Positions 5,586 to 62,600 of a DNA stretch of 64,000 bases are shown piece after piece (within the stretch, counting starts at the first letter, position 1; the number at the start of each line of letters is the position of its first letter). The notes under the pieces were generated by a model. It had not been told where the DNA came from. It saw only the letters and a list, made by a program, of their open reading frames with translations, and searched no databases. This DNA is from Shigella phage Sf24. Where the stretch lies: sequence record MF327008; one strand, given 5' to 3'. Position numbers and translations under genes: made by a program.

Positions 5586-5795
5586 TTAAATTACATGATT
5601 ATTTATAATAAATTCTCGCGGAACGTTAAAATACCCAATTTTAGTTAATATAACAATATCGCCGTTAATAATTACCGGAGAATAATCTTCTGGAGCATTA
5701 AATTTCCAATGGGCTCTAATATTATATCCATCAGAACCAAATGCTCGAGTAGCCGGTCTCCCGGCTTTTTGCCACGCGTAGAAATCAAATTTCAT
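5586..5795 (-). CDS. hypothetical small protein (69 aa)
   Basis: Track ORF between soc and 56. Confidence 0.5.
   Translation of the reverse strand: MKFDFYAWQKAGRPATRAFGSDGYNIRAHWKFNAPEDYSPVIINGDIVILTKIGYFNVPREFIINNHVI
5600..5607 (-). promoter_or_regulatory. late promoter TATAAATA for soc
   Basis: Exact TATAAATA about 30 nt upstream of soc ATG. Confidence 0.7.
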
Positions 5796-5992
5796 TTTGA
5801 ATGCTCTATAATTAATTTTAAGGCTTCTTCGCTGACAAAAATTTCATCAAGACCTTCTTCTATAACCCAATCAACCATACGAAGTTGATTAGTTAAGAGC
5901 TCACATACGAGCTCCTTGTTATAATCTTTAAATAGCTGGTCAATACGTTTCTTATGGGCTTTCTTAAGCTGACGCTTATTTAAACGAGCCAT
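5792..5992 (-). CDS. hypothetical small protein (66 aa)
   Basis: Track ORF between soc and 56. Confidence 0.5.
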   Translation of the reverse strand: MARLNKRQLKKAHKKRIDQLFKDYNKELVCELLTNQLRMVDWVIEEGLDEIFVSEEALKLIIEHSK

Positions 5993-6510
5993 TAATAACC
6001 TCGGTCTTGACGAGCGAAGTTTTCAGCATTTTTCAGGTAATAAAGTTTAAAGATTTCTTCAGCTGACATTCCAAGAGCAATAAATTTATTCATGAAAAAG
6101 TGAAATTGGTCAATCAGTTCAAATTTAATTTCAAGCTGATCTTCGGGAGATAAATCTTGAATTTTCTTGGATTGCATTTCAGAATAACGTTTCTTCCAAG
6201 GTTTCCATACAGCAGAAGCTTCTTTTTCACCATTACTCATACCACCAAGAGAAGTATATAGTTCGCGAGTTTCATCTGCGATATAATCGTCTTGGTTTCG
6301 CAACCAAGCAAGAACTTCTCCTGCGGTTTCAAGTGAATCAGGATGACGATTTGTTTCTGGTTTATCATTAGCCAAACGAATCTGTAAATGCCGCTGCATG
6401 TCAAGCATAACCTGCAATGGGTCAATACTGTGCATAATATACTCAGCATATGCACGATTTGCTTTATCAACACCTTCGATCAAATGAGCACATTCATTAA
6501 AGTGAGCCAT
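5992..6510 (-). CDS. 56: dCTP pyrophosphatase (gene 56)
   Basis: MAHFNECAHLIEG...; start moved to ATG 6508-6510 (track begins at an upstream TTG) with AAAGGA SD; 171 aa. Confidence 0.88.
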   Translation of the reverse strand: MAHFNECAHLIEGVDKANRAYAEYIMHSIDPLQVMLDMQRHLQIRLANDKPETNRHPDSLETAGEVLAWLRNQDDYIADETRELYTSLGGMSNGEKEASAVWKPWKKRYSEMQSKKIQDLSPEDQLEIKFELIDQFHFFMNKFIALGMSAEEIFKLYYLKNAENFARQDRGY

Positions 6511-6570: not shown

Positions 6571-7910
<1,340 letters not shown>

Positions 7911-7935
7911 TATATCATCCTCAGCAATTTGTTTT

Positions 7936-7965
7936 ATAATACCATAACAAGCTGAGAAAGTAAAC
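7936..7965 (-). promoter_or_regulatory. early promoter upstream of the dam-coupled ORF
   Basis: GTTTAC-N18-TATTAT. Confidence 0.6.
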
Positions 7966-8003
7966 AAATTTATGATAAATATTAATTTAAAGGAGGACGA
8001 CGC

Positions 8004-10819: not shown

Positions 10820-10848
10820 AACAATCTCCTCATTTAACCAACAAGATT

Positions 10849-10878
10849 ACTATACCATAGTCTTGTCAGCTTGTAAAC
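10849..10878 (-). promoter_or_regulatory. early promoter upstream of dmd
   Basis: GTTTAC-N18-TATAGT immediately after gene 41 stop. Confidence 0.65.
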
Positions 10879-12653: not shown

Positions 12654-13827
12654 TAAATTCTTCCATATCACTTAACTGCTCGAGGTCAGTTTCTAAATCA
12701 GCTGCTGATTTACTTTTACTTTCTGGAGATTTAAATTTTTCAACCTTTGAGTTAATCAATTCATCAACTTCAGCTTCAACAATTTCATTACTATCAATAG
12801 CACCTAACTGATAAGCACGTTTAATAGCATCTCGGAATGGCTGATGCTTAAATAAAGGACCCCAGAATGTAGTGCAGTTGGTATCTTTTGCACGCCAAGA
12901 TTTTTCTTCGCGAATCATCTCACCGGTTTCTTCGTCAAGAAATTCACGAGCATACCAGCCATTTTTAGGTTTTACCACAAATCCTAATTCAAGAGCCATA
13001 TCTAACAATCCAGAATAAGGATCGATGCCACCGTCAAATTTAACATCAATAAAGAATTTACTTTTTTCTTTAACGGTACGAGATTTTTCTACATTTAGAA
13101 CAAATTGATACCCCTGAAGATCAGAACCATCTTTAATCTGGCGCTTACCGATAATGAATACAGTATCAGCCGAATACATTACGCCTGTACCACCTGTCAT
13201 CACGGTTTTACTAAACATTTCAATTGTTTCAATTGTATGGTTAACCGCAACACATGGAATATTTTTAATGCTAAAGTAAGGAGTAACAATACGGAATAAT
13301 GACTTCAGTGATTTAGCACGAGTCATATCTGCCACAGATTTTTCATTCAAGGCATCTTCAGTTTCTTTCTTAGAAGCCATATTACCGATTGAGTCGATGA
13401 ATACAATAACTTTTTCACCGCGCTCAATAGCTTCAAGCTGATTCACCATATCAATTTTTAGCTGTTCAACTGACTGAATCGGCGTATGAATTACTCGTTC
13501 TGGGTCAACCCCCATGGATCGCAAATAAGCTGGAGTAATACCAAATTCGCTATCATAGAATAGACAAACCGCGTCAGGATATTTGTTCAAATATGCCGCA
13601 ACCATAGTCAAAGACATATTTGATTTAAAGTGTTTAGAAGGCCCTGCGAAAATAGTTAAACCAGACTGCATACCGCCATCAATCGCACCAGAAATAGCAA
13701 TATTAAGCATTGGAATTTTTGTACGAATTACATCCTTTTCATTAAAGAATTTAGATGTAGTCAGTTCAGCAGTCATTTTAGAAGTGGAAGCTTTAATCAA
13801 ACGGGATTTTAAATCTGCAATAGACAT
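12646..13827 (-). CDS. uvsX: recombinase UvsX (RecA-like)
   Basis: 393 aa; matches T4 UvsX as recalled. Confidence 0.95.
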   Translation of the reverse strand: MSIADLKSRLIKASTSKMTAELTTSKFFNEKDVIRTKIPMLNIAISGAIDGGMQSGLTIFAGPSKHFKSNMSLTMVAAYLNKYPDAVCLFYDSEFGITPAYLRSMGVDPERVIHTPIQSVEQLKIDMVNQLEAIERGEKVIVFIDSIGNMASKKETEDALNEKSVADMTRAKSLKSLFRIVTPYFSIKNIPCVAVNHTIETIEMFSKTVMTGGTGVMYSADTVFIIGKRQIKDGSDLQGYQFVLNVEKSRTVKEKSKFFIDVKFDGGIDPYSGLLDMALELGFVVKPKNGWYAREFLDEETGEMIREEKSWRAKDTNCTTFWGPLFKHQPFRDAIKRAYQLGAIDSNEIVEAEVDELINSKVEKFKSPESKSKSAADLETDLEQLSDMEEFNE

Positions 13828-13904
13828 TCATTTTTTCCATAGGCATCATTATATTTTCCTCACTGGTTAAAGATAGAGTAATTATAACACAATAAATTTA
13901 GGCA

Positions 13905-14747
13905 TTAATCAACTGCTATTGGATGAATAACATTAAACTTATGAAATGCTTCTGATTTTTCTTTACGTGAAACGCACATGCGAAGAACCTTTAATGGTTC
14001 GTCTTCTTCACCCAACGATTTTCGTTTTTCAATATTAGAAGTTTTCCAACGAGCTTGCTCTGGAAACTCTCTATTGATTTGCTCAAGCGCTCTATTATGT
14101 TTAGAATTACTACGAATTGAACTGCACCCGCCAGGAGCTTGTGCTTTTCCAGATACAACCAGATATTTGAACAAGGCCAAATGCGGATAACCTTGATTAA
14201 TTAAATTGAGAAATGCATACATATCTTCGCACAAATCAATTTTTCCATACCCAATTTGTTCTGTCGTAAGTTTTCCAAGGTCATACCATGTATTCGTGAA
14301 TCCATATGAATTTTCACGATAATTACCCCAAGATGAAGTAATTTTAAAAATTGGTAGGCGAGCATGACCATGATAATACCCGCAATCCATGGCATCCTCA
14401 ACGTATTGAATCAATTCATAGAACTGTTCACGGGTTAATTGATTAATTTTATCTACGCAGCGACGATCATCTTTCTTTCGCATTGAGCTCATACGAATAG
14501 TAGTATCATCGTCAATCATCCAGATTCGTTGACCTGCATACATATCAGTAATTGCTTTACGAGTACCGGCAATTCCGTTTACATCATCAGGAATAGTTAT
14601 AATTTTAGCTCTAGACCCATAGGCATCATAATAAGCTTTTTCTTCATGTTCACGCACTACAATATGGGGTTCATAATCAGTCGGAAACATATCAAGGGCA
14701 GAAACTGCCCCGACACGCTGATAACTTGGAATTACGAATTGAATCAT
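13905..14747 (-). CDS. putative glycosyltransferase at the beta-gt locus (not T4 beta-gt)
   Basis: 280 aa from ATG 14745-14747 (ATGA overlap with gene 42 stop, AAGGTGAG SD); RIWMIDDDTTI DxD-like motif; does not match T4 beta-gt as recalled. Confidence 0.6.
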   Translation of the reverse strand: MIQFVIPSYQRVGAVSALDMFPTDYEPHIVVREHEEKAYYDAYGSRAKIITIPDDVNGIAGTRKAITDMYAGQRIWMIDDDTTIRMSSMRKKDDRRCVDKINQLTREQFYELIQYVEDAMDCGYYHGHARLPIFKITSSWGNYRENSYGFTNTWYDLGKLTTEQIGYGKIDLCEDMYAFLNLINQGYPHLALFKYLVVSGKAQAPGGCSSIRSNSKHNRALEQINREFPEQARWKTSNIEKRKSLGEEDEPLKVLRMCVSRKEKSEAFHKFNVIHPIAVD

Positions 14748-15484
14748 TTCCACTCACCTTTATAGTCTTTTTTCACAATATGAGTTTCGCCAGTATTCCA
14801 CCAATGATCAACCAAGTAAAAATGACGAGAATATACATGAAGACTTCCGACATTCCATATAATAGAACCTGCTTTATACTGACGAGTTGAATCGCCTGCA
14901 TTCAAATCAGATACTAATTTATCTAATACGTATTTTTGCCATGCATAATCATTACGGAATCCGAAGACCACGTCATTTGAGCGCATGCTTACTACTGCAT
15001 TGACTTTCTTATCACGAATCAGGTACTGTACTGTATTAGTACACATGAAATCTGACATACCATCTTTATTGTAGTCAAATTGCATGGATGGACGAGTATA
15101 AATCATGATACCACGTCGAGAATCAGGATTTTGACCAAGTTCAGCTAAACACATATCATACTGGGCATAGTTATCTTCTGACCAAATAGCCCAACCATAA
15201 TTCGAGTTAATTTCGCCTTTAGAAGATGCTACTTGTTGCCAAATCTTCGGTGTTTCACCTGGAATATCTTTAACAAACAAACTCTTAGATTTATACCATT
15301 CAAGTTCGCGCTGAATGTATTCATCATTAAGAGCGCCAAAAATAAACGGTTCATCTGCTACAAATGATGCGCCAATAATTTCAATAGTTTTAACACCGGT
15401 TTTATCAACTACGAAATCTTTTTCCTTTAATGCAAGCCCCAAATGAAGACGGATTTCTCCAACTGTCATATAATCGTTAATCAT
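14744..15484 (-). CDS. 42: dCMP hydroxymethylase (gene 42)
   Basis: 246 aa; thymidylate-synthase-like; matches T4 gp42 as recalled. Confidence 0.93.
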   Translation of the reverse strand: MINDYMTVGEIRLHLGLALKEKDFVVDKTGVKTIEIIGASFVADEPFIFGALNDEYIQRELEWYKSKSLFVKDIPGETPKIWQQVASSKGEINSNYGWAIWSEDNYAQYDMCLAELGQNPDSRRGIMIYTRPSMQFDYNKDGMSDFMCTNTVQYLIRDKKVNAVVSMRSNDVVFGFRNDYAWQKYVLDKLVSDLNAGDSTRQYKAGSIIWNVGSLHVYSRHFYLVDHWWNTGETHIVKKDYKGEWK

Positions 15485-16287: not shown

Positions 16288-16524
16288 TCAAATGCAAGTA
16301 GTAATTACTCCAGTAGTGCTTATGCAGGTATTACCCATTTGCACACCTAAAGATCCATTTGTATTCACATGAAGATTATCATCAATTTTAACTGATATTT
16401 TACCATTAGTGTGAATAACGGTGCTAGATTCAATCACAGGTTGAGTATCATTTTCAACACTAACAAATGGAACTGCTGCTAATGCAACTAAACAAACTGC
16501 TAAGCATCCCATAACAATTTTCAT
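16288..16524 (-). CDS. hypothetical secreted small protein (78 aa)
   Basis: Track ORF 16288-16536; start moved to ATG 16522-16524 with GGAGAATAAA SD; signal peptide; early promoter upstream. Confidence 0.55.
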   Translation of the reverse strand: MKIVMGCLAVCLVALAAVPFVSVENDTQPVIESSTVIHTNGKISVKIDDNLHVNTNGSLGVQMGNTCISTTGVITTCI

Positions 16525-16558
16525 TTTATTCTCCAAATCCGTATTAGTTGATAGTTGT

Positions 16559-16588
16559 ATAGTACCATGGAAGAACAGGGATGTAAAC
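16559..16588 (-). promoter_or_regulatory. early promoter with conserved leader
   Basis: GTTTACA-N18-TACTAT followed by ACAACTATCAACT...GGAGAATAAA-ATG. Confidence 0.7.
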
Positions 16589-16667
16589 AGTTTTGTGAAA
16601 AATTTTTAATGAATTTACAGGACCTAGAATCATCTGTTTTTCATAAGTATAGATTTATATTACTTGT

Positions 16668-16691
16668 ATGAAAAAGGGACCAGGAGGTCCC
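16668..16691 (-). terminator. intrinsic terminator after gene 43
   Basis: GGGACC-UCCU-GGUCCC followed by UUUUU. Confidence 0.65.
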
Positions 16692-16704
16692 TAGATTTAT
16701 TCTA

Positions 16705-21623: not shown

Positions 21624-21657
21624 AATTTCCTCATTCAAGTTTTAGTGTAAATTATAA

Positions 21658-21671
21658 AGGGCCGAAGCCCT
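21658..21671 (-). terminator. C(UUCG)G hairpin between 45 and 44
   Basis: RNA GGGC-UUCG-GCCC. Confidence 0.45.
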
Positions 21672-21674
21672 CTA

Positions 21675-22361
21675 TTAAAAATCGTGGGTAGAATCAGCTT
21701 CAAGAGCTACTACATAATTCGCATGTTCACCTTCAAATTTAGCAGCGCCTTGTTTACCTTTTGCCCAAAGCAGAAGTTTATAATTTCCTGGTTGCATTTT
21801 CATATTTGCCATATTGATAATGAAATTAAATGTATTTTCACCATCATAATCACCAAGAGTCAAAGAATATTTAACACGGGTAAGAGCAGAATCTTCTACT
21901 TTATTAAAACCGTTAATTACGATTTTACCTTCTTTTACCGTGATAGCAATTGTATCAATTTGCAGACCACGAGATACACGCAACAGCTGTTGAAGGTCTT
22001 CAGCTTTAATTTCAGTAACAACAGATGCTACCGGGAATGGAATTGGTTTATTAGGAGCAACTACTGTACTCGGATCGGCTGCTGGCCAAAAAATTGTTGA
22101 ACGAGCATCAGCAATTTTAATATTTCCATCTTCTGACTGGGAAATTTCTGCATCATCATTAACTAGAGACAGAATACCGAGAAAACCGTTCAAATCGTAA
22201 ATTGCTACATCAAAATCAATAACGTCAGAAATATTTGCTTCCGCATAAGTTGTACCATTAACTGCGCGAGTCATAATAAATTGACCGGATTTAAGCATAA
22301 TACCGGAGTTAATAGTAGCGAAATTTTTAAGCAGAGCAGTAGTATCTTTAGACAGTTTCAT
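21675..22361 (-). CDS. 45: sliding clamp (gene 45)
   Basis: 228 aa; matches T4 gp45 as recalled. Confidence 0.95.
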   Translation of the reverse strand: MKLSKDTTALLKNFATINSGIMLKSGQFIMTRAVNGTTYAEANISDVIDFDVAIYDLNGFLGILSLVNDDAEISQSEDGNIKIADARSTIFWPAADPSTVVAPNKPIPFPVASVVTEIKAEDLQQLLRVSRGLQIDTIAITVKEGKIVINGFNKVEDSALTRVKYSLTLGDYDGENTFNFIINMANMKMQPGNYKLLLWAKGKQGAAKFEGEHANYVVALEADSTHDF

Positions 22362-26342: not shown

Positions 26343-26365
26343 TATATCAAACTCCGTATAAAGCT

Positions 26366-26383
26366 AAAGGGCCGAAGCCCTTT
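26366..26383 (-). terminator. C(UUCG)G hairpin at the 3' end of alpha-gt
   Basis: RNA AAAGGGC-UUCG-GCCCUUU overlapping the a-gt stop. Confidence 0.45.
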
Positions 26384-27584
26384 ATTTTGTAATAATGTCA
26401 AACTGTTCTTTAAAGCAGAAGCTTGAATCTTGATGCTGATACAAAAATTCATAAGCTTTTTCGCGTTCACGGTCATAAAGAGTTCGGTCAGATGACAGTT
26501 CTTTAATACGCTCAAATGTTGATTCCATGTCATTTTCATCAAACCAAACGATACCGCTATCATGAGAAATTAACGGAGTATTATCAACACGGAATTTTAA
26601 ATTTTCGCCAGTAGATTTCCAAAATACCGGAATTGTTCCACATGCACCAAGCTCGAGATGAGTATATTCTAAAGAACGTTGTAGATATTTTTTGTCCAAC
26701 TTACTCAGCTGATAACCAAATCCGGATTTACTCATGCGTTCAAGCATTTCGCTATTTACATAACGGTCAAGAATTTGCGTTGGCAAATTAGGAGCAATTT
26801 TAATTTGGTCTACTTGATGAAGACGATAATACTCGTATGGAATTCCTTTTTCTTTAATAGGAATGAACGCTGGAGAACGTTCCAGACCTTCCATAATAGT
26901 ACTTAGTCCTGCAGGTTTAAGATGTTTTTCATGAAAATCAAACATCTGATAAAAACCTTTCCATGTAGTCGTACGACCAATCCAACGGTTGATATTCATG
27001 TTAATTTCAGAAACATCTTTCCAGTAGGTTGACCGAACCTTCGCAATATCCATAGGAGGCTGAAAGTTATATACTGTCGGTGCTTCTTCAATATCATCAA
27101 ACAGAGAAACTGTTTCAGGATACCATTCTTTCATCAGAACTTTATTAAAATCACCATTATCAGAATGGCTAAAAATAACATCAGCTCGACGAACAGTTTC
27201 TTCTAATCCCAAATTTCGGCGCAAAGAAAGAGAAGAATGGTCATGTTGATAAACTACAACACGAACAGAAGGTTTAATGTTATCAATAATTTTTTTATAG
27301 TTATTAATAGTGTCTTCTTCAACCGAAGTAGCAGGAACTGAATTGATAATTAGAATATCACAATCATTTACCAGCTTAAGTGTTTTATCATATTCTTTTG
27401 CCAATAAAACCGGAATTGAAAATGATTTATAATCATGCGCGCAATTACGAGTAAATGATTTATCTTTAGCATAAACCAAAGTTACTTCATGACCATTCTT
27501 AATAAACCAATCACGTTGCTCAAGAGAAAATTTAGTTACACCACAACCTTCAAGACCTCGAGCCATAAAAATACATACTTTCAT
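26382..27584 (-). CDS. a-gt: DNA alpha-glucosyltransferase
   Basis: 400 aa; matches T4 alpha-gt as recalled. Confidence 0.92.
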   Translation of the reverse strand: MKVCIFMARGLEGCGVTKFSLEQRDWFIKNGHEVTLVYAKDKSFTRNCAHDYKSFSIPVLLAKEYDKTLKLVNDCDILIINSVPATSVEEDTINNYKKIIDNIKPSVRVVVYQHDHSSLSLRRNLGLEETVRRADVIFSHSDNGDFNKVLMKEWYPETVSLFDDIEEAPTVYNFQPPMDIAKVRSTYWKDVSEINMNINRWIGRTTTWKGFYQMFDFHEKHLKPAGLSTIMEGLERSPAFIPIKEKGIPYEYYRLHQVDQIKIAPNLPTQILDRYVNSEMLERMSKSGFGYQLSKLDKKYLQRSLEYTHLELGACGTIPVFWKSTGENLKFRVDNTPLISHDSGIVWFDENDMESTFERIKELSSDRTLYDREREKAYEFLYQHQDSSFCFKEQFDIITK

Positions 27585-27634
27585 TTAATATCCTCTTTGT
27601 TTTGGTTTATTTTACCAAAAATTTATAAAGCAAT

Positions 27635-31624: not shown

Positions 31625-32095
31625 TTAATCATGTTTCCACACCCCATCGGTATTTGACCAAAGTCGCTGATTATCTGATCCTCGCCACAGCTTTTTGGTC
31701 GGAAGATTTTTCTCATACTTCCCATCAATAATAACATCAACATATTTAAGCATTTCTAGTTGTTTAATATCTTCAAATTTATATCCTGTCCACAACCAAA
31801 TGCTTTTATTGGGATAAAGATTTTTTACTGTTTGAACAATGCAATGAACAACATCTCGGTTATCAGGATAGAGAGGGTCTCCTCCAGTTATAGTTAATCC
31901 TTCTATATAATCATTATTCAAACATTCAATTAATTGCTCTAGTGTTTCACCAGTGAATGGAACACCGTTTCTAGCGTTCCATGTTGATTTATTATAACAC
32001 CCTTCGCATTTATGCAAACAACCTGTAACGAAAAGAACGACCCTGCAACCAGGGCCATTCACAAAATCACAAGGATAAAATCTATCATAATTCAT
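31625..32095 (-). CDS. nrdG: anaerobic ribonucleotide reductase activase NrdG
   Basis: 156 aa; radical-SAM cysteine cluster CLHKCEGC. Confidence 0.9.
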   Translation of the reverse strand: MNYDRFYPCDFVNGPGCRVVLFVTGCLHKCEGCYNKSTWNARNGVPFTGETLEQLIECLNNDYIEGLTITGGDPLYPDNRDVVHCIVQTVKNLYPNKSIWLWTGYKFEDIKQLEMLKYVDVIIDGKYEKNLPTKKLWRGSDNQRLWSNTDGVWKHD

Positions 32096-33909
32096 TGATG
32101 CTTAACCCTATGCATGATTTCTTTATTTTTACCGAGATTAAATCCGCGCTCGTTAGGATTTCCCAAATAACCGCATGTTCTTCTTATAGTATTCATCTTT
32201 TTGGGATCAGTTTCTCCACAAATAGAACAAACAAATCCGTTTTCAGTAGGAGTCATTTCATGAGTGCTTCCACACGTAAAACATTTATCTACTGGCATGT
32301 TAACACCAAAATAATCTAAATGTTGTGCAGCATAATCCCATACAGCCTCAAGACCTTTTAGGTTATTTTTCATATCAGGAAGTTCAACATAAGAAATGTG
32401 ACCACCTGTCGCAATGAAATGATATGGTGCTTCACGAGAAATCTTTTCAAACGGAGTGATATTTTCTTCTACTGAAACATGGAAACTATTAGTGTACCAA
32501 CCTTTATCAGTAACATCTTTTACGCTTCCATATTTTTCAGTATCAAGTTTACAGAAGCGATAGCAAAGGTTTTCAGCAGGAGTAGAATACAAGCTAAAAG
32601 CAAAACCGGTTCTTTCGGTCCACTGCTTAAGACGAGCATTCATTTTAGTTAAAATTTCCTGTCCAATATCACGACCGACAAGAATATTCAATTCGTGAAT
32701 ACCAATGTATCCTAAGGACACTGAACTTCTACCGTTTTTAAATAACTCAATTATATCGTCATCAGGTTTAAGACGAACCCCGAATGCACCTTCTTGGTAA
32801 AGAATAGGAGCAACAGTAGCTTTAACTCCTTTTAAGGAACTAATTCTACACATCAATGCTTCAAAACATAAATCCATTCTCTCATTGAACAATTCGGCAA
32901 ATTTCTGTTCATTGAACTGTGTTCCAATATAAGAATCTAGCGCAATGCGAGGAAGATTCAGTGTTACAACACCAAGATTATTACGTCCATCAAGAATTTC
33001 ATTACCAGTCGAATCTTTCCATACGCTCAAGAAACTACGGCATCCCATCGGAGAAACAGGAACAGATGAACCAGTGATAGCTTTATTGTTCTTAGCTGAA
33101 ATAATATCAGGATACATCCTTTTGCTTGCACACTCTAGAGCAAGCTTCTTAATATCATAGTTCGGATCATCTTTATAAAGATTAACACCTTCTTCGACGA
33201 ACATAACAAGCTTAGGGAAAATAGGAGTTATCCCATCACGACCAAGACCTTTAATACGATTTTTCAGAATTGCTTTCTGAATCATTCGTTCAGTCCAGTC
33301 AGTTCCCGTACCAAATGTAATTGTTACAAAAGGCGTTTGTCCGTTTGAACTAAAGAGAGTATTTACTTCATATTCATAAGCTTGGAATGCATCGTATACG
33401 TCTTTTTCTGTTTTAGATTGAGCATAATTTAACGCATCAGCGATTTGCCATTTTTCTGCATCCTCAATATGTTTTGCATAGGTGCGTTTAACATAAGGAG
33501 AAAGTACTTTATCTACATTCGCAAAAGTCGTTCCGCCATATTGATGGGAAGCAACTTGCGCAGTAATTTGTGCCATAATTGCAGTAGCAACACCGATTGA
33601 TTTAGGAGTTTCAATCTGCGCATTACCAAGCTTAAATCCGTTCTCAAGCATTCCTTTTAAATCTACTAAACAACAATTAGTAAATGGAAGAGCAGGGGAA
33701 TAATCAATATCATGGAAATGAATAATTCCGCTTTCATGCGCTTTCATAATAAAAGACGGGACCATATTTTTGGCAATGTGTTTAGACACAATACCAGCCA
33801 TAAGGTCCCGTTGAGTTGGAAAAACACGAGAATCTTTATTAGCATTCTCGTTTAAAAGGTCTTTATTAGTTTTATGAATCAATCCTTCAATTTCTTTTTC
33901 AATTGTCAT
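32092..33909 (-). CDS. nrdD: anaerobic ribonucleotide reductase NrdD, uninterrupted
   Basis: 605 aa continuous ORF; C-terminal glycyl-radical motif RTCGYLG. Confidence 0.95.
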   Translation of the reverse strand: MTIEKEIEGLIHKTNKDLLNENANKDSRVFPTQRDLMAGIVSKHIAKNMVPSFIMKAHESGIIHFHDIDYSPALPFTNCCLVDLKGMLENGFKLGNAQIETPKSIGVATAIMAQITAQVASHQYGGTTFANVDKVLSPYVKRTYAKHIEDAEKWQIADALNYAQSKTEKDVYDAFQAYEYEVNTLFSSNGQTPFVTITFGTGTDWTERMIQKAILKNRIKGLGRDGITPIFPKLVMFVEEGVNLYKDDPNYDIKKLALECASKRMYPDIISAKNNKAITGSSVPVSPMGCRSFLSVWKDSTGNEILDGRNNLGVVTLNLPRIALDSYIGTQFNEQKFAELFNERMDLCFEALMCRISSLKGVKATVAPILYQEGAFGVRLKPDDDIIELFKNGRSSVSLGYIGIHELNILVGRDIGQEILTKMNARLKQWTERTGFAFSLYSTPAENLCYRFCKLDTEKYGSVKDVTDKGWYTNSFHVSVEENITPFEKISREAPYHFIATGGHISYVELPDMKNNLKGLEAVWDYAAQHLDYFGVNMPVDKCFTCGSTHEMTPTENGFVCSICGETDPKKMNTIRRTCGYLGNPNERGFNLGKNKEIMHRVKHQ

Positions 33910-41075: not shown

Positions 41076-41603
41076 TTATGCGAGTACCGTCTTTAACCGT
41101 TCTTCAAACTTCCGAAGAGTATTCTGGCGTTCAGCTCTTTGCTTTTTATAAGTTTCAATACGCTCTGAAATGAGAGTGTATCGTTCATTTACTGATTCTT
41201 TCATAAAATCAGGAATTTCACGAGAAGCTTTAATCTCGTCAAATTTATCAATAACAGCTTGCTCTTCAACAATTAAGTTATCATACATCAAAATATCTTT
41301 CTTGATGAACTCAATATCTTCTTGAGTTACACGAGATAATTTAGATGCTTTATCCTTTTTGTACTGTTCATTAGTATCACGAGACCAGTGTAATGTACGA
41401 TTTTTATTCGTATTTTTGTAAATTTCTACAATACCAATCTCATCGATAATAACGATCCAATTCCAACGAGATTTGTAAATTTGTCCTCCGTCAACCGTGA
41501 TTTCACCTCCGATTGAGATGTCATTAAAGAACTTGCTTTGTGCTTCAGATTTAAATTTACCATCATTGTAGTTTACCAAGTTGAAAATATCTTTAGCATT
41601 CAT
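41076..41603 (-). CDS. hypothetical protein (175 aa)
   Basis: Track ORF trimmed to ATG 41601-03 (GGAGGAACAGAAA SD); track N-terminal extension is translated promoter. Confidence 0.55.
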   Translation of the reverse strand: MNAKDIFNLVNYNDGKFKSEAQSKFFNDISIGGEITVDGGQIYKSRWNWIVIIDEIGIVEIYKNTNKNRTLHWSRDTNEQYKKDKASKLSRVTQEDIEFIKKDILMYDNLIVEEQAVIDKFDEIKASREIPDFMKESVNERYTLISERIETYKKQRAERQNTLRKFEERLKTVLA

Positions 41604-41631
41604 TTTCTGTTCCTCCGTAGTTGATAGTTGT

Positions 41632-41661
41632 ATAGTACCACAGAGGAACGGTCTTGTAAAC
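41632..41661 (-). promoter_or_regulatory. early promoter with conserved leader
   Basis: GTTTACA-N18-TACTAT then ACAACTATCAACT. Confidence 0.7.
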
Positions 41662-42067: not shown

Positions 42068-43036
42068 TTATTTCAGAAGAGTAACCTCAGCGATTTCTTC
42101 CCAACCGTTTTTGTCGGTCATAATAAAGTCAGCAAGATAAAGAGCAGTACGCAGTGAAACATTGCGTAAACGATTAACATTGACTTTCATCCATGATAAT
42201 GCTTTATAAGTTTCTTCATCAGAAAGACCGCGCTTTTGCATCATGTCAGTTGAAAGAATAACATCTTCAACCCTGACCATAATTTCTTCATTAGTGTGAA
42301 CACCCAAATCCAAATAAACTGAGCGGGACACTAATGCTTGTAAGTGTGGGGCAAGTTTAGTACCACGGTCTAATTCGCGGTCAATGTCAACGTTTGTGAT
42401 AAAAACAATCGTTCCTTTAAATTCAAACTCACGCTCAATGCCTTTTTCTTCTAAGTAAGAAGATGCAGTGCTCCAGCAGACTTTACGGGTCTCTCCAGTG
42501 TCCAGAGCAGCTTTTAGAAGATTAAGAATGTCCATATCAGAGAAAACATCCACATCATCAATCAAAAGGACAGAATTCTCTTCACGATTATTCCAAAGCT
42601 GTTCATAAAGACCAATACCAGAGATTTTACCATTAATGCTTTTATACTCAATGTATCCAATATCATTTGCTTTATTTAAAGCTTTATCTAAAGAATACGT
42701 TTTACCAATACCTGCTGCTCCCGAGATAATTAATGAACGAATGTTTCCGTTAATAATACCATTCGTCATCATTCCCATAACATTAAATCTTTTATTAATG
42801 CGGGTTTTCATATCTTCATACGATTCTTTAACTTCTTCAACTTTTACACCATCATATGAAATGTCTGATTTGTAAACCCAAACACCGCGACGTTTACCGT
42901 CAATTTCAACAAAAACTTTACCATCTCCTTGTGCATCTACCGGAGCATTATCCGGGAACCATTCGCCTAAGAGCTCAAAAGTTCCAGAGATTTCTTTACC
43001 GAAGTAGATACCCTTATTGATAGTTACAGTTTTCAT
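42068..43036 (-). CDS. P-loop ATPase (322 aa)
   Basis: Walker A GAAGIGKT, Walker B LLIDDVD; start at ATG 43034-36 with GGAGAATAAA SD. Confidence 0.65.
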   Translation of the reverse strand: MKTVTINKGIYFGKEISGTFELLGEWFPDNAPVDAQGDGKVFVEIDGKRRGVWVYKSDISYDGVKVEEVKESYEDMKTRINKRFNVMGMMTNGIINGNIRSLIISGAAGIGKTYSLDKALNKANDIGYIEYKSINGKISGIGLYEQLWNNREENSVLLIDDVDVFSDMDILNLLKAALDTGETRKVCWSTASSYLEEKGIEREFEFKGTIVFITNVDIDRELDRGTKLAPHLQALVSRSVYLDLGVHTNEEIMVRVEDVILSTDMMQKRGLSDEETYKALSWMKVNVNRLRNVSLRTALYLADFIMTDKNGWEEIAEVTLLK

Positions 43037-43070
43037 TTTATTCTCCAAATCCGTATCAGTTGATAGTTGT

Positions 43071-43100
43071 ATAGTACCACAAAGCTTTATGCTTGTAAAC
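43071..43100 (-). promoter_or_regulatory. early promoter with conserved leader (near-duplicate of 16524-16590)
   Basis: GTTTACA-N18-TACTAT then ACAACTATCAACTGATACGGATTTGGAGAATAAA-ATG. Confidence 0.7.
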
Positions 43101-43123
43101 AGTTTTGTGAAAAATTTTTGAAA

Positions 43124-43150
43124 TAAAAAAAAGGGAGCCCGAAGGCTCCC
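43124..43150 (-). terminator. intrinsic terminator after the NTase-fold gene
   Basis: GGGAGCC-UUCG-GGCUCCC followed by U8. Confidence 0.75.
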
Positions 43151-43152
43151 TA

Positions 43153-44166: not shown

Positions 44167-44624
44167 TCAGCCTTATATTCAATAACAGGACATACTTTAG
44201 CTTTACGAGCTTTTAAAAATTCAACGATAATCGATTTCTTGGGTTGAATAGGAGGTAAACCTTTATACGCCCTATCAATATTTTCTATGTGTAAAGCATA
44301 ATCCTTTTTCCATTTATAATCTTTATATTTTTCATGCAAATGTGCAGGAATAACAAATGAACCGATAATAAGTAAAACAACCAAAAGCGCAAGTATAAAT
44401 GCTGATGGAATAAGAGTCCATAAACTACCAAAAATAAGCCATTTCTGCATGATTTCTGCGCAGATAATAGTTAGACCTGCGAGTATAGTACATCCGAAAA
44501 AAGAAACGAAAAATGTAGGAATAACAACAGACCAAAAATATGCACACAGTGTCTTAGGTCGTTTCCATTCATCATTAAACATTTTGAATAATTTATAGTG
44601 CCAAGAGTTTTCATTAATAATCAT
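44163..44624 (-). CDS. hypothetical membrane protein (153 aa)
   Basis: Track ORF, multiple TM segments; stop overlaps the NTase ATG. Confidence 0.55.
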   Translation of the reverse strand: MIINENSWHYKLFKMFNDEWKRPKTLCAYFWSVVIPTFFVSFFGCTILAGLTIICAEIMQKWLIFGSLWTLIPSAFILALLVVLLIIGSFVIPAHLHEKYKDYKWKKDYALHIENIDRAYKGLPPIQPKKSIIVEFLKARKAKVCPVIEYKAE

Positions 44625-44626
44625 AA

Positions 44627-45148
44627 TTATCCTTTCATTGAAGGTGTAACAGTTGTTAAATACTTAATCATAGCTTCAGCTTCTGATTTTGATAATGAAA
44701 TTTCTCCATTGTTTTGACGAATAGAAATAAAATCCGGATGACGGTCACCACCAGCTTTTAAAATACACATATAAGTATCAGTTTCATCTTCAATATCTGA
44801 AATGATTGAAGCAGTTCCGCATGAATGTGGTTTTTGATAAATCAATGCAGCTTTTCTTCCGCCATTTGACTGTTCATAAACTTTTAATACATCAAACAAA
44901 TCACTTCTTTTATCAATAGCTAAAATGTTATTTTCATCTTCAATGTTAAATCCTTCGGATACTTCATAAAGTGTCACCCATAAATCGCCAATATCAATAA
45001 CAGCGTTCACTTTTCCATGACTTTCAAGAGCATGACAAATTTTCTTGATTTCGTCATAACTCATTTTAATAATATCATCTCCTTGACTAAGGAAGATGTC
45101 ATTTTTAAATTCAACACGAATTAAACCGCTTCCACTTGAAATAAACAT
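44627..45148 (-). CDS. hypothetical protein (173 aa), paralog-like with next ORF
   Basis: Track ORF; FNIEDEN and C-terminal YLTTVTPSM resemble the neighbour. Confidence 0.55.
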   Translation of the reverse strand: MFISSGSGLIRVEFKNDIFLSQGDDIIKMSYDEIKKICHALESHGKVNAVIDIGDLWVTLYEVSEGFNIEDENNILAIDKRSDLFDVLKVYEQSNGGRKAALIYQKPHSCGTASIISDIEDETDTYMCILKAGGDRHPDFISIRQNNGEISLSKSEAEAMIKYLTTVTPSMKG

Positions 45149-45804: not shown

Positions 45805-45832
45805 TCTCTTCTCCTTGGCAGTTGACAAGATT

Positions 45833-45862
45833 ACTATACCATAACCTTGCCAACTTGTAAAC
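45833..45862 (-). promoter_or_regulatory. early promoter
   Basis: GTTTACA-N18-TATAGT. Confidence 0.65.
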
Positions 45863-46464: not shown

Positions 46465-46616
46465 GCCATGTGAGTTGCAACTTCATCACACATATTATAA
46501 CGTTTCTTAAGAAATTCTACAAGTTCTTCACTAGTAACTTCATCCATGTCGACGAAAAAATCACCATTAATGATGACGTAGATATTTCCTTCTTGATTGA
46601 GTGCTTCAATTTTCAT
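46428..46616 (-). CDS. hypothetical protein (62 aa)
   Basis: Track ORF trimmed to ATG 46614-16 (AAGAGGAGAA SD) below early promoter. Confidence 0.45.
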
Positions 46617-46644
46617 GATGTTCTCCTCTTTATCCGATAGTTGT

Positions 46645-46674
46645 ATAGTACCACAGCTCAAACGGAAAGTAAAC
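46645..46674 (-). promoter_or_regulatory. early promoter
   Basis: GTTTAC-N18-TACTAT then ACAACTATC. Confidence 0.6.
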
Positions 46675-53674: not shown

Positions 53675-54091
53675 TTAAATGTAAATATTTTTACCGTAAT
53701 ACTTATACCAGTGTGGTTTCATTAAAATTTTTTCATCAAGTCGTTGTTGACTCAATTTAATAGCTGATTTGCATGGATTATAATCATTTTTCCATTCTAC
53801 TGGAATATCGCTGATGTCAGGAACTTCAGTATCTTTTATACTGAACCCTCGTTTTAAGCATTCCGTTATAATGTCTAATTGACGCTTTCGCAAAAATTCT
53901 AACTTATCGTAAAAGAACGTAACATGACCAGAACCTAAAATAAACTCGGAAGATATTTTAAAATCTTTAACGCGCTTACCGTTTGCCACATGCTTACGAA
54001 CTATACCAAAAACACGCGGCAATTCACGGTATTCTGCGATTAAATGTTGATCAGCAAGTTCAGATACTAAAGTCAAATTAATACGAGTCAT
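53675..54091 (-). CDS. denV: endonuclease V (pyrimidine dimer glycosylase)
   Basis: 138 aa; [17 protein letters not shown]... matches T4 DenV as recalled. Confidence 0.92.
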
Positions 54092-54116
54092 TTTATCCCT
54101 CCAAGTAACTGTGAAT

Positions 54117-54146
54117 ATACTATCACAATTCTAGGAGAAAGTAAAC
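54117..54146 (-). promoter_or_regulatory. early promoter upstream of denV
   Basis: GTTTAC-N18-TAGTAT. Confidence 0.6.
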
Positions 54147-56926: not shown

Positions 56927-56946
56927 TCCTACTTACTCCAAGTAAT

Positions 56947-56962
56947 AGGGGCCGAAGCCCCT
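56947..56962 (-). terminator. C(UUCG)G hairpin after the PspA-like gene
   Basis: RNA AGGGGC-UUCG-GCCCCU. Confidence 0.45.
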
Positions 56963-56967
56963 TATCA

Positions 56968-57995: not shown

Positions 57996-58025
57996 ATAAT
58001 ATCTCAATCATGAGCCTGTGTAAAC
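57996..58025 (-). promoter_or_regulatory. early promoter overlapping inverted repeat GGCTCAT/ATGAGCC
   Basis: GTTTACA-N18-TATTAT. Confidence 0.6.
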
Positions 58026-58289
58026 TTATTTCATATTATTGAAATATTCTTCTGCGATTTCATCGTTATCATGGTAAACTTTAGAAGACAGTTTAACATA
58101 ACCTTCAGCAGTGAACATGTTAATCACAACCTTTACAGTATACCACTGACCATCTTCATTACCCATTACTGCGTAAGTTTCAAACATCGGATGATCAGGA
58201 CCGATAACTTTAATATCATTCACTGTACGACCAAAATCTTCTGAAACACATTTCATAAAGAAGTTGAACAGTTCGCCGTAATTATCCAT
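58026..58289 (-). CDS. hypothetical protein (87 aa)
   Basis: Track ORF begins at TTG 58301; first ATG 58287-89 with GGAGAATGAA SD; early promoter upstream. Confidence 0.55.
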   Translation of the reverse strand: MDNYGELFNFFMKCVSEDFGRTVNDIKVIGPDHPMFETYAVMGNEDGQWYTVKVVINMFTAEGYVKLSSKVYHDNDEIAEEYFNNMK

Positions 58290-58332
58290 TTCATTCTCCA
58301 AGTTGTTTTCTGTATCAGTAGTTGATAGTTGT

Positions 58333-58362
58333 ATAGTACCATGGAAGGGTAAGGATGTAAAC
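58333..58362 (-). promoter_or_regulatory. early promoter with conserved leader
   Basis: GTTTACA-N18-TACTAT then ACAACTATCAACT. Confidence 0.7.
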
Positions 58363-59204: not shown

Positions 59205-59281
<77 letters not shown>

Positions 59282-59285
59282 TATT

Positions 59286-59360
59286 TGGCGGACATGCATG
59301 GATTCGAACCATGGACCAATTGATTAACAGTCAACTGCTCTACCATTGAGCTACACATCC
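59286..59360 (-). tRNA. tRNA-Asn (anticodon GUU)
   Basis: Hand-folded: anticodon loop CTGTTAA, T-arm CATGG-TTCGAAT-CCATG, CCA encoded. Confidence 0.75.
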
Positions 59361-59364
59361 AAAT

Positions 59365-59451
59365 TGGTGGGGAGTGATGGAGTCGAACCACCCGAGTCGC
59401 AATGACAATGAATTTACAGTCCACACCGCTACCTCTACGGGATAACTCCCC
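59365..59451 (-). tRNA. tRNA-Tyr (anticodon GUA), long variable arm
   Basis: Hand-folded 87 nt: acceptor GGGGAGT/ACTCCCC, anticodon loop CTGTAAA, T-loop TTCGACT, CCA encoded. Confidence 0.75.
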
Positions 59452-59463
59452 TAATTCATAATT

Positions 59464-59538
59464 TGGTGGCCCTGGGTGGAATTGAACCACCATCTGGCGA
59501 TTATGAGTCGCTTGCTTGAACCTTCCAGCTACAGGGCC
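59464..59538 (-). tRNA. tRNA with CAU anticodon (Ile2-type or Met)
   Basis: Hand-folded: acceptor GGCCCTG/CAGGGCC, anticodon loop CTCATAA, T-loop TTCAATT, CCA encoded. Confidence 0.75.
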
Positions 59539-59539
59539 T

Positions 59540-59615
59540 TGGTGCTGATTGACGGAATCGAACCGCCGACCTTCTCATTACAAGTGAGTTGCTCTACCTA
59601 CTGAGCTAAATCAGC
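59540..59615 (-). tRNA. tRNA-Thr (anticodon UGU)
   Basis: Hand-folded: acceptor GCTGATT/AATCAGC, D-arm GCTC..GAGC, anticodon loop CTTGTAA, T-loop TTCGATT. Confidence 0.8.
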
Positions 59616-59620
59616 AAAAC

Positions 59621-59710
59621 TGGCGGAGGCGATAGGATTTGAACCTATGAGTCGCCGGAGCGACTGCCGGTTTTCAAGACCGGTGCATTAAACCACTCTG
59701 CCACGCCTCC
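59621..59710 (-). tRNA. tRNA-Ser (anticodon UGA), long variable arm
   Basis: Hand-folded 90 nt: acceptor GGAGGCG/CGCCTCC, anticodon stem CCGGT/ACCGG with loop CTTGAAA, T-loop TTCAAAT. Confidence 0.8.
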
Positions 59711-59712
59711 AG

Positions 59713-59786
59713 TCTCCATACAAGGATTTGAACCTTGGACCTCCTGATCCCAAATCAGGCGCTCTACCAAACTGAGCTACACGGAG
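59713..59786 (-). tRNA. tRNA-Pro (anticodon UGG)
   Basis: Hand-folded: anticodon stem CCTGA/TCAGG with loop TTTGGGA, T-arm CAAGG-TTCAAAT-CCTTG; CCA not encoded. Confidence 0.8.
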
Positions 59787-59796
59787 TAAATTAAAT

Positions 59797-59870
<74 letters not shown>

Positions 59871-59875
59871 AAATT

Positions 59876-59962
59876 TGGTGCGAGAAGTGGGACTCGAACC
59901 CACAAGGAAATCATTCCGCAGCATTTTAAGTGCTGTGCCTTTACCAATTTGACCATTCTCGC
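59876..59962 (-). tRNA. tRNA-Leu (anticodon UAA), long variable arm
   Basis: Hand-folded 87 nt: acceptor GCGAGAA/TTCTCGC, anticodon stem CAGCA/TGCTG with loop CTTAAAA, T-loop TTCGAGT. Confidence 0.8.
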
Positions 59963-59963
59963 G

Positions 59964-60036
59964 CTGGGAATAAAGGACTCGAACCTTTGCATCCTGGAAT
60001 CAAAATCCAGTGCCTTACCAACTTGGCTAATTCCCA
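59964..60036 (-). tRNA. tRNA-Gln (anticodon UUG)
   Basis: Hand-folded: acceptor TGGGAAT/ATTCCCA, anticodon stem CTGGA/TCCAG with loop TTTTGAT, T-loop TTCGAGT; CCA not encoded. Confidence 0.8.
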
Positions 60037-61315: not shown

Positions 61316-61501
61316 CTATTCACCTTTAGAAATTTTATCCATAACGATAGCAATTAAACCAATTAAAAATGCTACTACAAGTGAAAATACATTTTCTGCT
61401 GTAGTTAATAATCCGCATATAAATCCAACAAACATTGAAAAACTAAAAGCGGAAGCAGAAATTGCAATAGCAACATTTCGAATTAATTCACAACGTTTCA
61501 T
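61316..61501 (-). CDS. hypothetical membrane peptide (61 aa)
   Basis: Track ORF, two TM segments; early promoter upstream. Confidence 0.45.
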   Translation of the reverse strand: MKRCELIRNVAIAISASAFSFSMFVGFICGLLTTAENVFSLVVAFLIGLIAIVMDKISKGE

Positions 61502-61529
61502 TTTATTCTCCTCAGTAGTTGATAGGGTA

Positions 61530-61560
61530 ATAGTATCACTACTAAAACCCCCGTGTAAAC
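61530..61560 (-). promoter_or_regulatory. early promoter (19-nt spacer)
   Basis: GTTTACA-N19-TACTAT. Confidence 0.5.
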
Positions 61561-61572
61561 AACTTTGTGAAA

Positions 61573-61830
61573 TTATTTTAAATCTTCTAATCGTTTCTTC
61601 ATCTTAGAACCATTTTTAGCGATTTCTCCTGCGTCAGAGCATAATGCTAAAAGTGCTTTAACTTTAGTTTGGTCTCCTTTAAAAGACGAAGGATCGACTG
61701 CAGCAGCAAGTTCTTTAATACGAGAGAAAAGACGCTCAGCTTCGGCTAAAGCCATTCCAAGCTTTACTTCCATACCATGAGAAGATTCAGTGATAATAGT
61801 TTCTGTAGCAAACTCTTTATAAGTTTTCAT
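61573..61830 (-). CDS. internal (injected) protein at the ipI locus with capsid targeting sequence
   Basis: 85 aa, N-terminus MKTYKEFATE (CTS-like); position between tRNA cluster and 57B; early promoter upstream. Confidence 0.7.
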   Translation of the reverse strand: MKTYKEFATETIITESSHGMEVKLGMALAEAERLFSRIKELAAAVDPSSFKGDQTKVKALLALCSDAGEIAKNGSKMKKRLEDLK

Positions 61831-61860: not shown

Positions 61861-61890
61861 AATAGTATCACTACCTCATCAGTGTGTAAA
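61861..61890 (-). promoter_or_regulatory. early promoter with -10 inside a 10-bp perfect inverted repeat
   Basis: GTTTACA-N18-TACTAT; TGATGAGGTA...TACCTCATCA brackets the -10. Confidence 0.65.
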
Positions 61891-61903
61891 CAACTTTGTG
61901 AAA

Positions 61904-62600
<697 letters not shown>

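Follow-up and report, generated by a model that had tools for sequence, protein, structure and literature searches.

The question raised by this locus is why two unrelated early genes of Shigella phage Sf24 should be preceded by nearly the same promoter and nearly the same 5' leader. The window, which is the whole 64,000-nt stretch of DNA that was analysed (record MF327008), aligns with approximately 10.2-76.1 kb of T4 (NC_000866), and around 500 Tequatrovirus genomes match the 3-kb segment around the finding, which holds the DNA polymerase gene 43, at 95-99% identity; by sequence, the window is that of a Tequatrovirus, a T4-like phage. Its early genes lie on the minus strand, as do all of the cassette sites listed in an earlier note on this DNA. 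That note described almost identical copies of an early promoter and its entire leader at 16524-16590 (cassette A) and 43036-43102 (cassette B), and alignment bears this out, with 55 of 67 positions identical on the minus strand. The similarity extends past those limits, to 82 of 96 positions when 16514-16609 is compared with 43026-43121.

The mismatches are distributed unevenly along this alignment, with 12 of the 14 confined to a 14-nt stretch inside the 17-nt spacer between the -35 and -10 elements. Upstream of the variable stretch, across the UP region and -35 hexamer of cassette A (16582-16609), cassette B matches at 27 of 28 positions and differs at one; from TGG through ATGAAAAyTGT, one position in 54 differs. 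A comparison set was formed from the 20 early-promoter-like sites of the window that have a Shine-Dalgarno (SD) sequence and an ATG downstream, giving 190 pairs. Typical pairwise identity in this set is 0.40-0.42, and in the part running from the -10 element to the leader the pair reaches 0.94, where the median pair scores 0.42 and the 95th percentile lies at 0.58. The pair is therefore the top outlier among the 190. The similarity is real and far from chance, and an outlier this extreme points to common descent rather than convergence.

Anatomy of the cassettes and their relatives

The features of the two cassettes, their downstream genes and the related sites in the window are as follows.

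16675-16692, minus strand: terminator hairpin of cassette A, AGGGACC-TCCT-GGTCCCT followed by a T run, after gene 43 (dG -18.7 kcal/mol, z -3.7)
16589-16609, minus strand: A/T-rich UP region of cassette A, TTAAAAATTTTTCACAAAACT
16559-16588, minus strand: core early promoter of cassette A, with GTTTAC at 16588-16583 (-36 to -31), a 17-nt spacer, TGG (TGn) and TACTAT at 16564-16559 (-12 to -7)
16525-16552, minus strand: predicted 28-nt 5' UTR of cassette A, AUCAACUAAUACGGAUUUGGAGAAUAAA, predicted to be unstructured (z 0.01)
16524-16534, minus strand: SD region of cassette A, GGAGAATAAAA, which fits the strong RegB/S1 consensus perfectly and shares its final A with the start codon
16288-16524, minus strand: 78-aa ORF under cassette A (PHROG 4189), with no T4 counterpart; indel junction ATGAAAAT
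43132-43151, minus strand: terminator hairpin of cassette B, AGGGAGCC-TTCG-GGCTCCCT followed by a T run, after the nrdC.11 homolog (dG -18.6 kcal/mol, z -3.8)
43071-43121, minus strand: UP region and core early promoter of cassette B, with GTTTAC at 43100-43095, a 17-nt locus-specific spacer, TGG and TACTAT at 43076-43071
43034-43064, minus strand: leader of cassette B, with a predicted 28-nt 5' UTR (+1 at 43064), SD GGAGAATAAAA at 43046-43036 and ATG at 43036-43034
42068-43036, minus strand: nrdC.10 homolog under cassette B, 322 aa, AAA-like (PHROG 1250)
41601-41661, minus strand: cassette of the same subfamily before the nrdC.8 homolog, sharing TGTGGTACTATACAACTATCAACTAC, after which the leader is shorter
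46614-46674, minus strand: partial subfamily member before the mobD.5 homolog, TGTGGTACTATACAACTATC and then divergent, with a terminator hairpin directly upstream
58287-58362, minus strand: subfamily member before the e.8 homolog, homologous to cassette A in its UP, spacer and initial transcribed sequence, with a longer leader
61499-61560, minus strand: early promoter before the trna.4 homolog, sharing only CTATCAACTACTGAGGAGAATAAAATG, with a third perfect RegB-consensus site (61501-61511)

Both cores read GTTTAC-A-N14-TGG-TACTAT (16588-16559 and 43100-43071) and thus present the -35 element, spacing, TGn and -10 element of an early promoter, and both are directly preceded by AAAAATTTTTCACAAAACT, an A-rich UP element, which in T4 early promoters lies at about -40 to -44 and beyond. 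The positions and consensus of T4 early promoters have been described (PMC1524935; also PMC2988021), as has the role of the UP element in them (PMC2988021, PMC1524935). Under the T4 numbering, in which GTTTAC occupies -36 to -31 and the -10 element has T at -12, A at -11 and T at -7, the predicted transcription start is the A of ATCAACT, at 43064 in cassette B and, as placed from the position of the -10 element, at 16552 in cassette A. With UP, -35, TGn, -10, SD and ATG all present, the earlier reading of the anatomy as an early promoter plus the entire leader to the start codon was correct, except that the gap after GTTTACA had been given as 18 nt and is 17 nt, leaving a 17-nt spacer from TTTACA to TACTAT. 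The two downstream genes belong to different PHROGs and are unrelated, as had been claimed.

The leaders are predicted to fold only slightly, with centroid energies of 0 to -5.7 kcal/mol and z-scores of approximately 0 to 0.7. A riboswitch-like or otherwise structured operator in the leaders was ruled out, as folding was no better than in shuffled controls, and an Rfam scan of the whole window returned only nine tRNAs, with no family at the cassettes. A clear terminator hairpin within 110 nt accompanies 6-7 of the 20 early-promoter-like sites.

Shorter copies of the shared core had also been listed, and these fared differently. The 19-mer TACTATACAACTATCAACT is present in four exact copies in the window, at 16546, 41619, 43058 and 58320, where shuffled sequences predict 0.02. 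The copies proposed at 41616-41661 and 58318-58362 thus contain it exactly; the one at 46636-46674 stands only in part, as the single site with three mismatches (46632); and the one at 61516-61560 shares CTATCAACTACTGAGGAGAATAAAATG alone. The genes behind the other copies belong to PHROG 2274 and PHROG 2678. The cassettes at 41661 and 43100 stand in tandem, 1.4 kb from each other, and have a perfect 24-nt repeat in common.

A second paralogous pair of early promoters, at 10841-10878 and 45825-45862 on the minus strand, shows 89% identity across 38 nt, spacer included, and has different small ORFs downstream. In the minus-strand promoters with -35 elements at 58025, 57636, 61891, 45862 and 10878, the spacer is complementary to the first transcribed bases, giving a hairpin that spans the -10 element (AGGCTCAT...ATGAGCCT at 58025). 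Three intergenic sites, 21650-21675, 26360-26385 and 56940-56965, have terminator-like hairpins that are almost the same, GGGCCGAAGCCC between A-rich and T-rich flanks.

T4 early promoters and the PeSL model

The cassettes of the window can be identified as T4 early promoters because T4 carries the same cassettes upstream of imm.1, nrdC.8, nrdC.10 and e.8, in addition to a diverged one at denV, and the window sites align with the upstream regions of T4 imm.1, nrdC.10, nrdC.8 and e.8. The same 19-mer lies at 27038, 53901, 55342 and 70654 in T4, within the same layout of UP, GTTTAC, TGn and TACTAT. The nrdC.10 cassette of the window is virtually identical to that of T4, whereas the cassette close to gene 43 drives the extra 78-aa ORF where that of T4 drives imm.1 directly, possesses the e.8-type spacer allele (TCCC...) where T4 has AGAC..., and lacks the CTG of the T4 leader. 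In phage fPS-65, the annotation of the e.8 copy reads 'predicted early promoter'; the T4 transcriptomics papers PMC9697503 and PMC6024815 mention none of these specific promoters. T4 early promoters have been characterized as 'uber' UP/-35/TGn/-10 promoters with extra consensus regions (Hinton review, PMC2988021).

A composite of terminator, early promoter, SD and ATG has been described as the promoter-early stem-loop (PeSL) and proposed as a linker for modular shuffling (Arbiol 2010, PMC2839356; Comeau 2014, PMC4122927), in a model that explicitly covers the T4/PST pair and gives the promoter consensus TTTACW-N17-TAYWAT (PMC4122927). The window promoters match this consensus, and the cassettes share the PeSL layout, in which an A/T-rich region, a stem-loop or terminator, a sigma-70-type early promoter, an SD and a start codon form one intergenic unit. 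The stem-loop is represented by the hairpins and T runs at 16692-16675 and 43151-43132 (z about -3.7). Like PeSLs, the cassettes precede small accessory ORFs and adjoin insertions, deletions and replacements between close relatives, as seen at cassettes A and B and at the ipII/ipIII and ipI loci, and the promoter hairpins that span the -10 element resemble the PeSL subclass in which the stem-loop overlaps it. The window departs from the model in that the clear terminator hairpin accompanies only the minority of early promoters counted above, and in that comparison with T4, a single genome pair, revealed no enrichment of indels at cassettes. Since the composite is the published PeSL, the idea that these repeats serve as recombination linkers is the published model, and the cassettes are an already known kind of element, T4 early promoter/PeSL cassettes, in a close relative of the best-studied phage.

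Allele sharing and gene indels at the cassettes

Copies from different cassette loci were compared using 51 further loci (L004-L023 and L025-L055), which came from searching IMG/VR and metagenome contigs for the exact pattern. In the 50 nt that precede the -10 element, copies from the gene-43 locus and the e.8 locus are intermixed: the closest pair between the two loci, L004 (gene-43 locus) and fPS-65 (e.8), is identical (distance 0), and distances within a locus reach 14-16. The spacer haplotypes AGACTGTTCTTCCATGG and TCCCTGTTCTTCCATGG, the AGAC and TCCC types, are each found at both loci, the AGAC type occurring at e.8 in around ten sequenced isolates, and one gene-43-locus copy (L032) possesses an nrdC.8-type spacer. 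Independent mutation is an unlikely source of multi-site haplotypes common to two loci in a spacer that is free of recognition contacts, and ectopic gene conversion between the gene-43 and e.8 loci is the simplest explanation.

The spacers of cassettes A and B, by comparison, are locus-specific in all genomes sampled, with a minimum between-locus distance of 11, and the similarity of the pair is therefore mosaic, consisting of two shared tracts around a private spacer. Only non-crossover exchange would be viable for this pair, because a crossover between sites 26.5 kb apart would delete essential replication genes.

The full alignment of the window with T4 contains 20 indels, of which four touch cassettes and nine are at cassette-free junctions. 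The four that touch cassettes are listed below.

7437-7974: promoter-plus-ORF module
Cassette A: the 78-aa ORF, present in the window relative to T4
54095-54102: junction at which ipII/ipIII are missing relative to T4, lying inside the leaders of two cassettes
ipI locus: gene replaced relative to T4, bracketed by cassettes at 61578 and 61807

At the ipII/ipIII and ipI loci, the junctions relative to T4 fall within cassette leaders or UP regions. Seven of the 20 indels are homing-endonuclease or intron differences, involving segF, segA, mobB, mobC, the nrdD intron, mobD and segB. The absent or replaced T4 elements map in the window to 5607-6029 (segF), 13815-14762 (segA, together with beta-gt), 27575-27600 (mobB), 32075-32095 (mobC), 33371-33374 (nrdD intron with I-TevII) and 44167-45130 (mobD), and the tRNA cluster at 59208-60036 on the minus strand has nine tRNA genes, compared with eight annotated in T4, and lacks segB.

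Approximately 16% of gene junctions carry a cassette, so chance alone would bring around 30% of two-ended indels into contact with one. The test was confined to the window-T4 alignment because loci retrieved by pattern have a cassette at their centre and would make a biased sample. Against that expectation, 4 of 20 indels touch a cassette, or 4 of 13 when homing and intron differences are set aside, and no enrichment was seen for this pair of genomes.

The variable internal-protein (IP) loci of T-even phages are reported to be flanked by conserved promoter and leader elements (Repoila 1994, as cited in PMC2839356 and PMC4122927). The same arrangement is present in the window at the ipI locus and at the missing ipII/ipIII locus: T4 has ipII and ipIII between e and denV, the window has neither at 54089-54146, and its denV is driven by the promoter that in T4 drives ipIII. 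The ipI-locus gene is a different internal-protein-like gene from that of T4, a classical T-even IP-locus polymorphism, and is bracketed by a 36-nt UP/-35 repeat that is 97% identical between 61553-61588 and 61884-61919 (minus strand). The IP-locus promoters belong to other early-promoter subfamilies than cassettes A and B.

Gene content also varies exactly at the 3' ends of cassettes A and B. Relative to T4, the 78-aa ORF is inserted precisely at the ATG of cassette A; ATGAAAAT marks the exact start of the 249-bp difference, and its 8 bp are found again where imm.1 begins. As the junction repeats are only 8 bp long, this event could have been mediated by microhomology, independently of the cassette. 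The ORF, which lies between gene 43 and imm.1, has a hydrophobic N-terminus and no Pfam hit. It is present in 317 phage records in two allelic classes (at least 95% and about 85% identity) and, judged from these records, is a common presence/absence polymorphism. Locus L041 and phage UPWr_E2 have, precisely at the 3' boundary of cassette B, an insert that brings in two ORFs together with another promoter. The insert is flanked by direct repeats of approximately 21 bp that differ at one position, TTGG(G/A)GAATAAAATGAAAACT, and derive from the two cassettes, which is the arrangement expected from cassette-to-cassette recombination. In locus L046, a 68-aa ORF is encoded by an insert placed just as precisely at the 3' boundary of a cassette. 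Across T4, the window and the IMG/VR and metagenome loci, the same core precedes at least 11 different genes.

Two apparent rearrangements were rejected. A break at 43060 in UPWr_E2 is not a new event but the L041-type insert lying next to a permuted record end, and a deletion near cassette B in laboratory T4 (T4_7t1) is not cassette-mediated, its junctions being inside coding sequence. The earlier proposal of a recombination linker thus appears to be supported in part: genes come and go at the 3' ends of both cassettes and alleles are common to loci, but the proportion of indels touching a cassette is close to chance and most indels in the window have no cassette at their boundary.

The RegB-like leader and the competing explanations

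The consensus for strong RegB/S1 cleavage sites is given as GG*AGRAYARAA (Durand 2006, as cited in PMC3014915). Perfect matches to GGAGRAYARAA in the window occur only at 16524-16534, 43036-43046 and 61501-61511, where 0.57 would be expected, and all three sit in cassettes that the earlier note had listed. Like the strong RegB/S1 sites of T4, GGAGAATAAAA fits the consensus exactly and lies in the intergenic translation-initiation region of an early leader, with its GGA predicted to be unpaired; RegB requires an unstructured site (PMC3014915). The literature search found no paper naming these sites as RegB targets. No variation was seen in the nrdC.10 leader among the seven sampled genomes; at the gene-43 locus, five leader alleles occur. 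A 42-nt unit comprising the -10 element and leader is also present, at 97.6% identity, in the Gelderlandvirus Salmonella phage STML-198 (L024 1501-1542; NC_027344.1 89265-89306). This copy lacks the GTTTAC -35 element, retaining only TGn and the -10 element, precedes an unrelated 59-aa ORF and adjoins an ADP-ribosylase gene. Selection on the leader would fit its perfect RegB site, its predicted lack of structure and C/A-rich composition, the constancy of the nrdC.10 copy and the STML-198 unit, and the suggestion of a shared regulatory leader is plausible on this evidence.

Taken together, the cassettes are best explained as paralogous copies of one subfamily of T4-type early-promoter cassettes (PeSLs) with a leader predicted to be cleavable by RegB, related by shared ancestry and ongoing exchange, a reading to which a probability of roughly 0.85 is assigned. 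Upstream transcription would be halted at the hairpin, and host sigma-70 RNA polymerase would be recruited straight after infection through the UP region, the GTTTAC -35 element, TGn and the TACTAT -10 element, yielding an mRNA with an unstructured leader of approximately 28 nt. Its SD region, GGAGAAUAAAA, would provide both good translation initiation and an optimal RegB/S1 cleavage site, so that the message could be shut off after the early phase. The copies would be nearly identical beyond the needs of a promoter because they have a common ancestry and because homologous recombination or gene conversion continues to pass sequence between them, and small accessory genes may be inserted, deleted and swapped at cassette homology, especially at the SD-ATGAAAA end of the leader. 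From the sequence and the literature, the primary role of the cassette is probably early transcription and translation with a RegB-sensitive leader; a secondary role as portable homology for gene conversion and for the insertion and deletion of small genes is suggested by the comparative evidence and by published work. Points against this explanation include the chance-level contact of indels with cassettes, the seven homing-endonuclease or intron differences, the T4_7t1 junctions and the short junction repeats at the 78-aa ORF, as well as the leader indel variants (CTACTG, CTA and CTG), which may have arisen by slippage instead of exchange.

The strongest competitor, which is nevertheless unlikely, is that the leader functions mainly as a post-transcriptional operator defining a small regulon of early mRNAs under RegB/S1 or another RNA-binding factor, with its spread being incidental. 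The restriction of perfect GGAGRAYARAA sites in the window to these cassettes, the absence of predicted structure, the invariance of the nrdC.10 leader and the preservation of the 42-nt unit before an unrelated ORF in a different genus would all suit such an operator. However, the cassettes of nrdC.8, e.8 and the MSKVTYII gene differ in the leader downstream of +8, the gene-43-locus leader is polymorphic, the stretch before the SD (AUCAACUNAUACGGAUUU) fits no operator described so far and has no Rfam hit, and regB is dispensable in the laboratory (PMC3014915). A related and more speculative proposal, which is considered improbable, is that the 3' half of the cassette (approximately 45-50 nt, from -16 through the ATG) is the selected unit, spread and homogenised by gene conversion, and that it defines a small RegB/S1 regulon of accessory early genes across tevenvirus genera. 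This is suggested by the STML-198 copy, which lacks a T4-type -35 element and lies before an unrelated ORF, and by the independent exchange of the upstream half between the gene-43 and e.8 loci.

Two further explanations are each given very little weight. Strong early promoters and good ribosome-binding sites could have converged on one sequence through function alone, with neither shared ancestry nor exchange; T4 early promoters do have an unusually long consensus of UP, -35, TGn and -10 (PMC2988021), and TTTCACAAAGTTGTTTAC and GAGGAGA-N-ATG are common to many promoters of the window. Such convergence would hardly account for an identity of 0.94 where 0.40-0.42 is typical, for the initial transcribed ACAACTATCAACT and the leader sequence ATACGGATTT, which are missing from 15 of the 20 window promoters, or for contact-free spacers that are identical between the gene-43 and e.8 loci of different genomes. 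Equally improbable is that a dedicated site-specific recombination or mobility system acts on the repeats, which would make them truly mobile rather than passive homology. Cassettes do occur at one to five places per record, with numbers of loci that differ across genomes, they appear in another genus, and the possibility of a helper protein has been raised (Arbiol 2010, PMC2839356), but the junctions vary in position within the leader and UP region and involve 8-21 bp of ordinary identity and lack a fixed cut site, the cassettes have no associated recombinase, and short patches of homology are reported to suffice for T4 general recombination (Singer 1982, as cited in PMC2839356).

Both suggestions of the earlier note, a recombination linker and a shared regulatory leader, were reasonable; neither is new, since the phenomenon is already known. 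As the role of such cassettes has been published for T4-type phages, they open no new question, and the value of the present analysis lies in confirmation and in two small additions: direct evidence of alleles common to distant cassette loci, and a leader in cassettes A and B that forms a perfect RegB site. For T4-like phages, the cassettes would explain how newly acquired small genes are expressed immediately in the early phase, and they illustrate how small genes may be gained, lost and swapped while neighbouring genes are left undisturbed, which gives Botstein's 'linker' model a concrete form.
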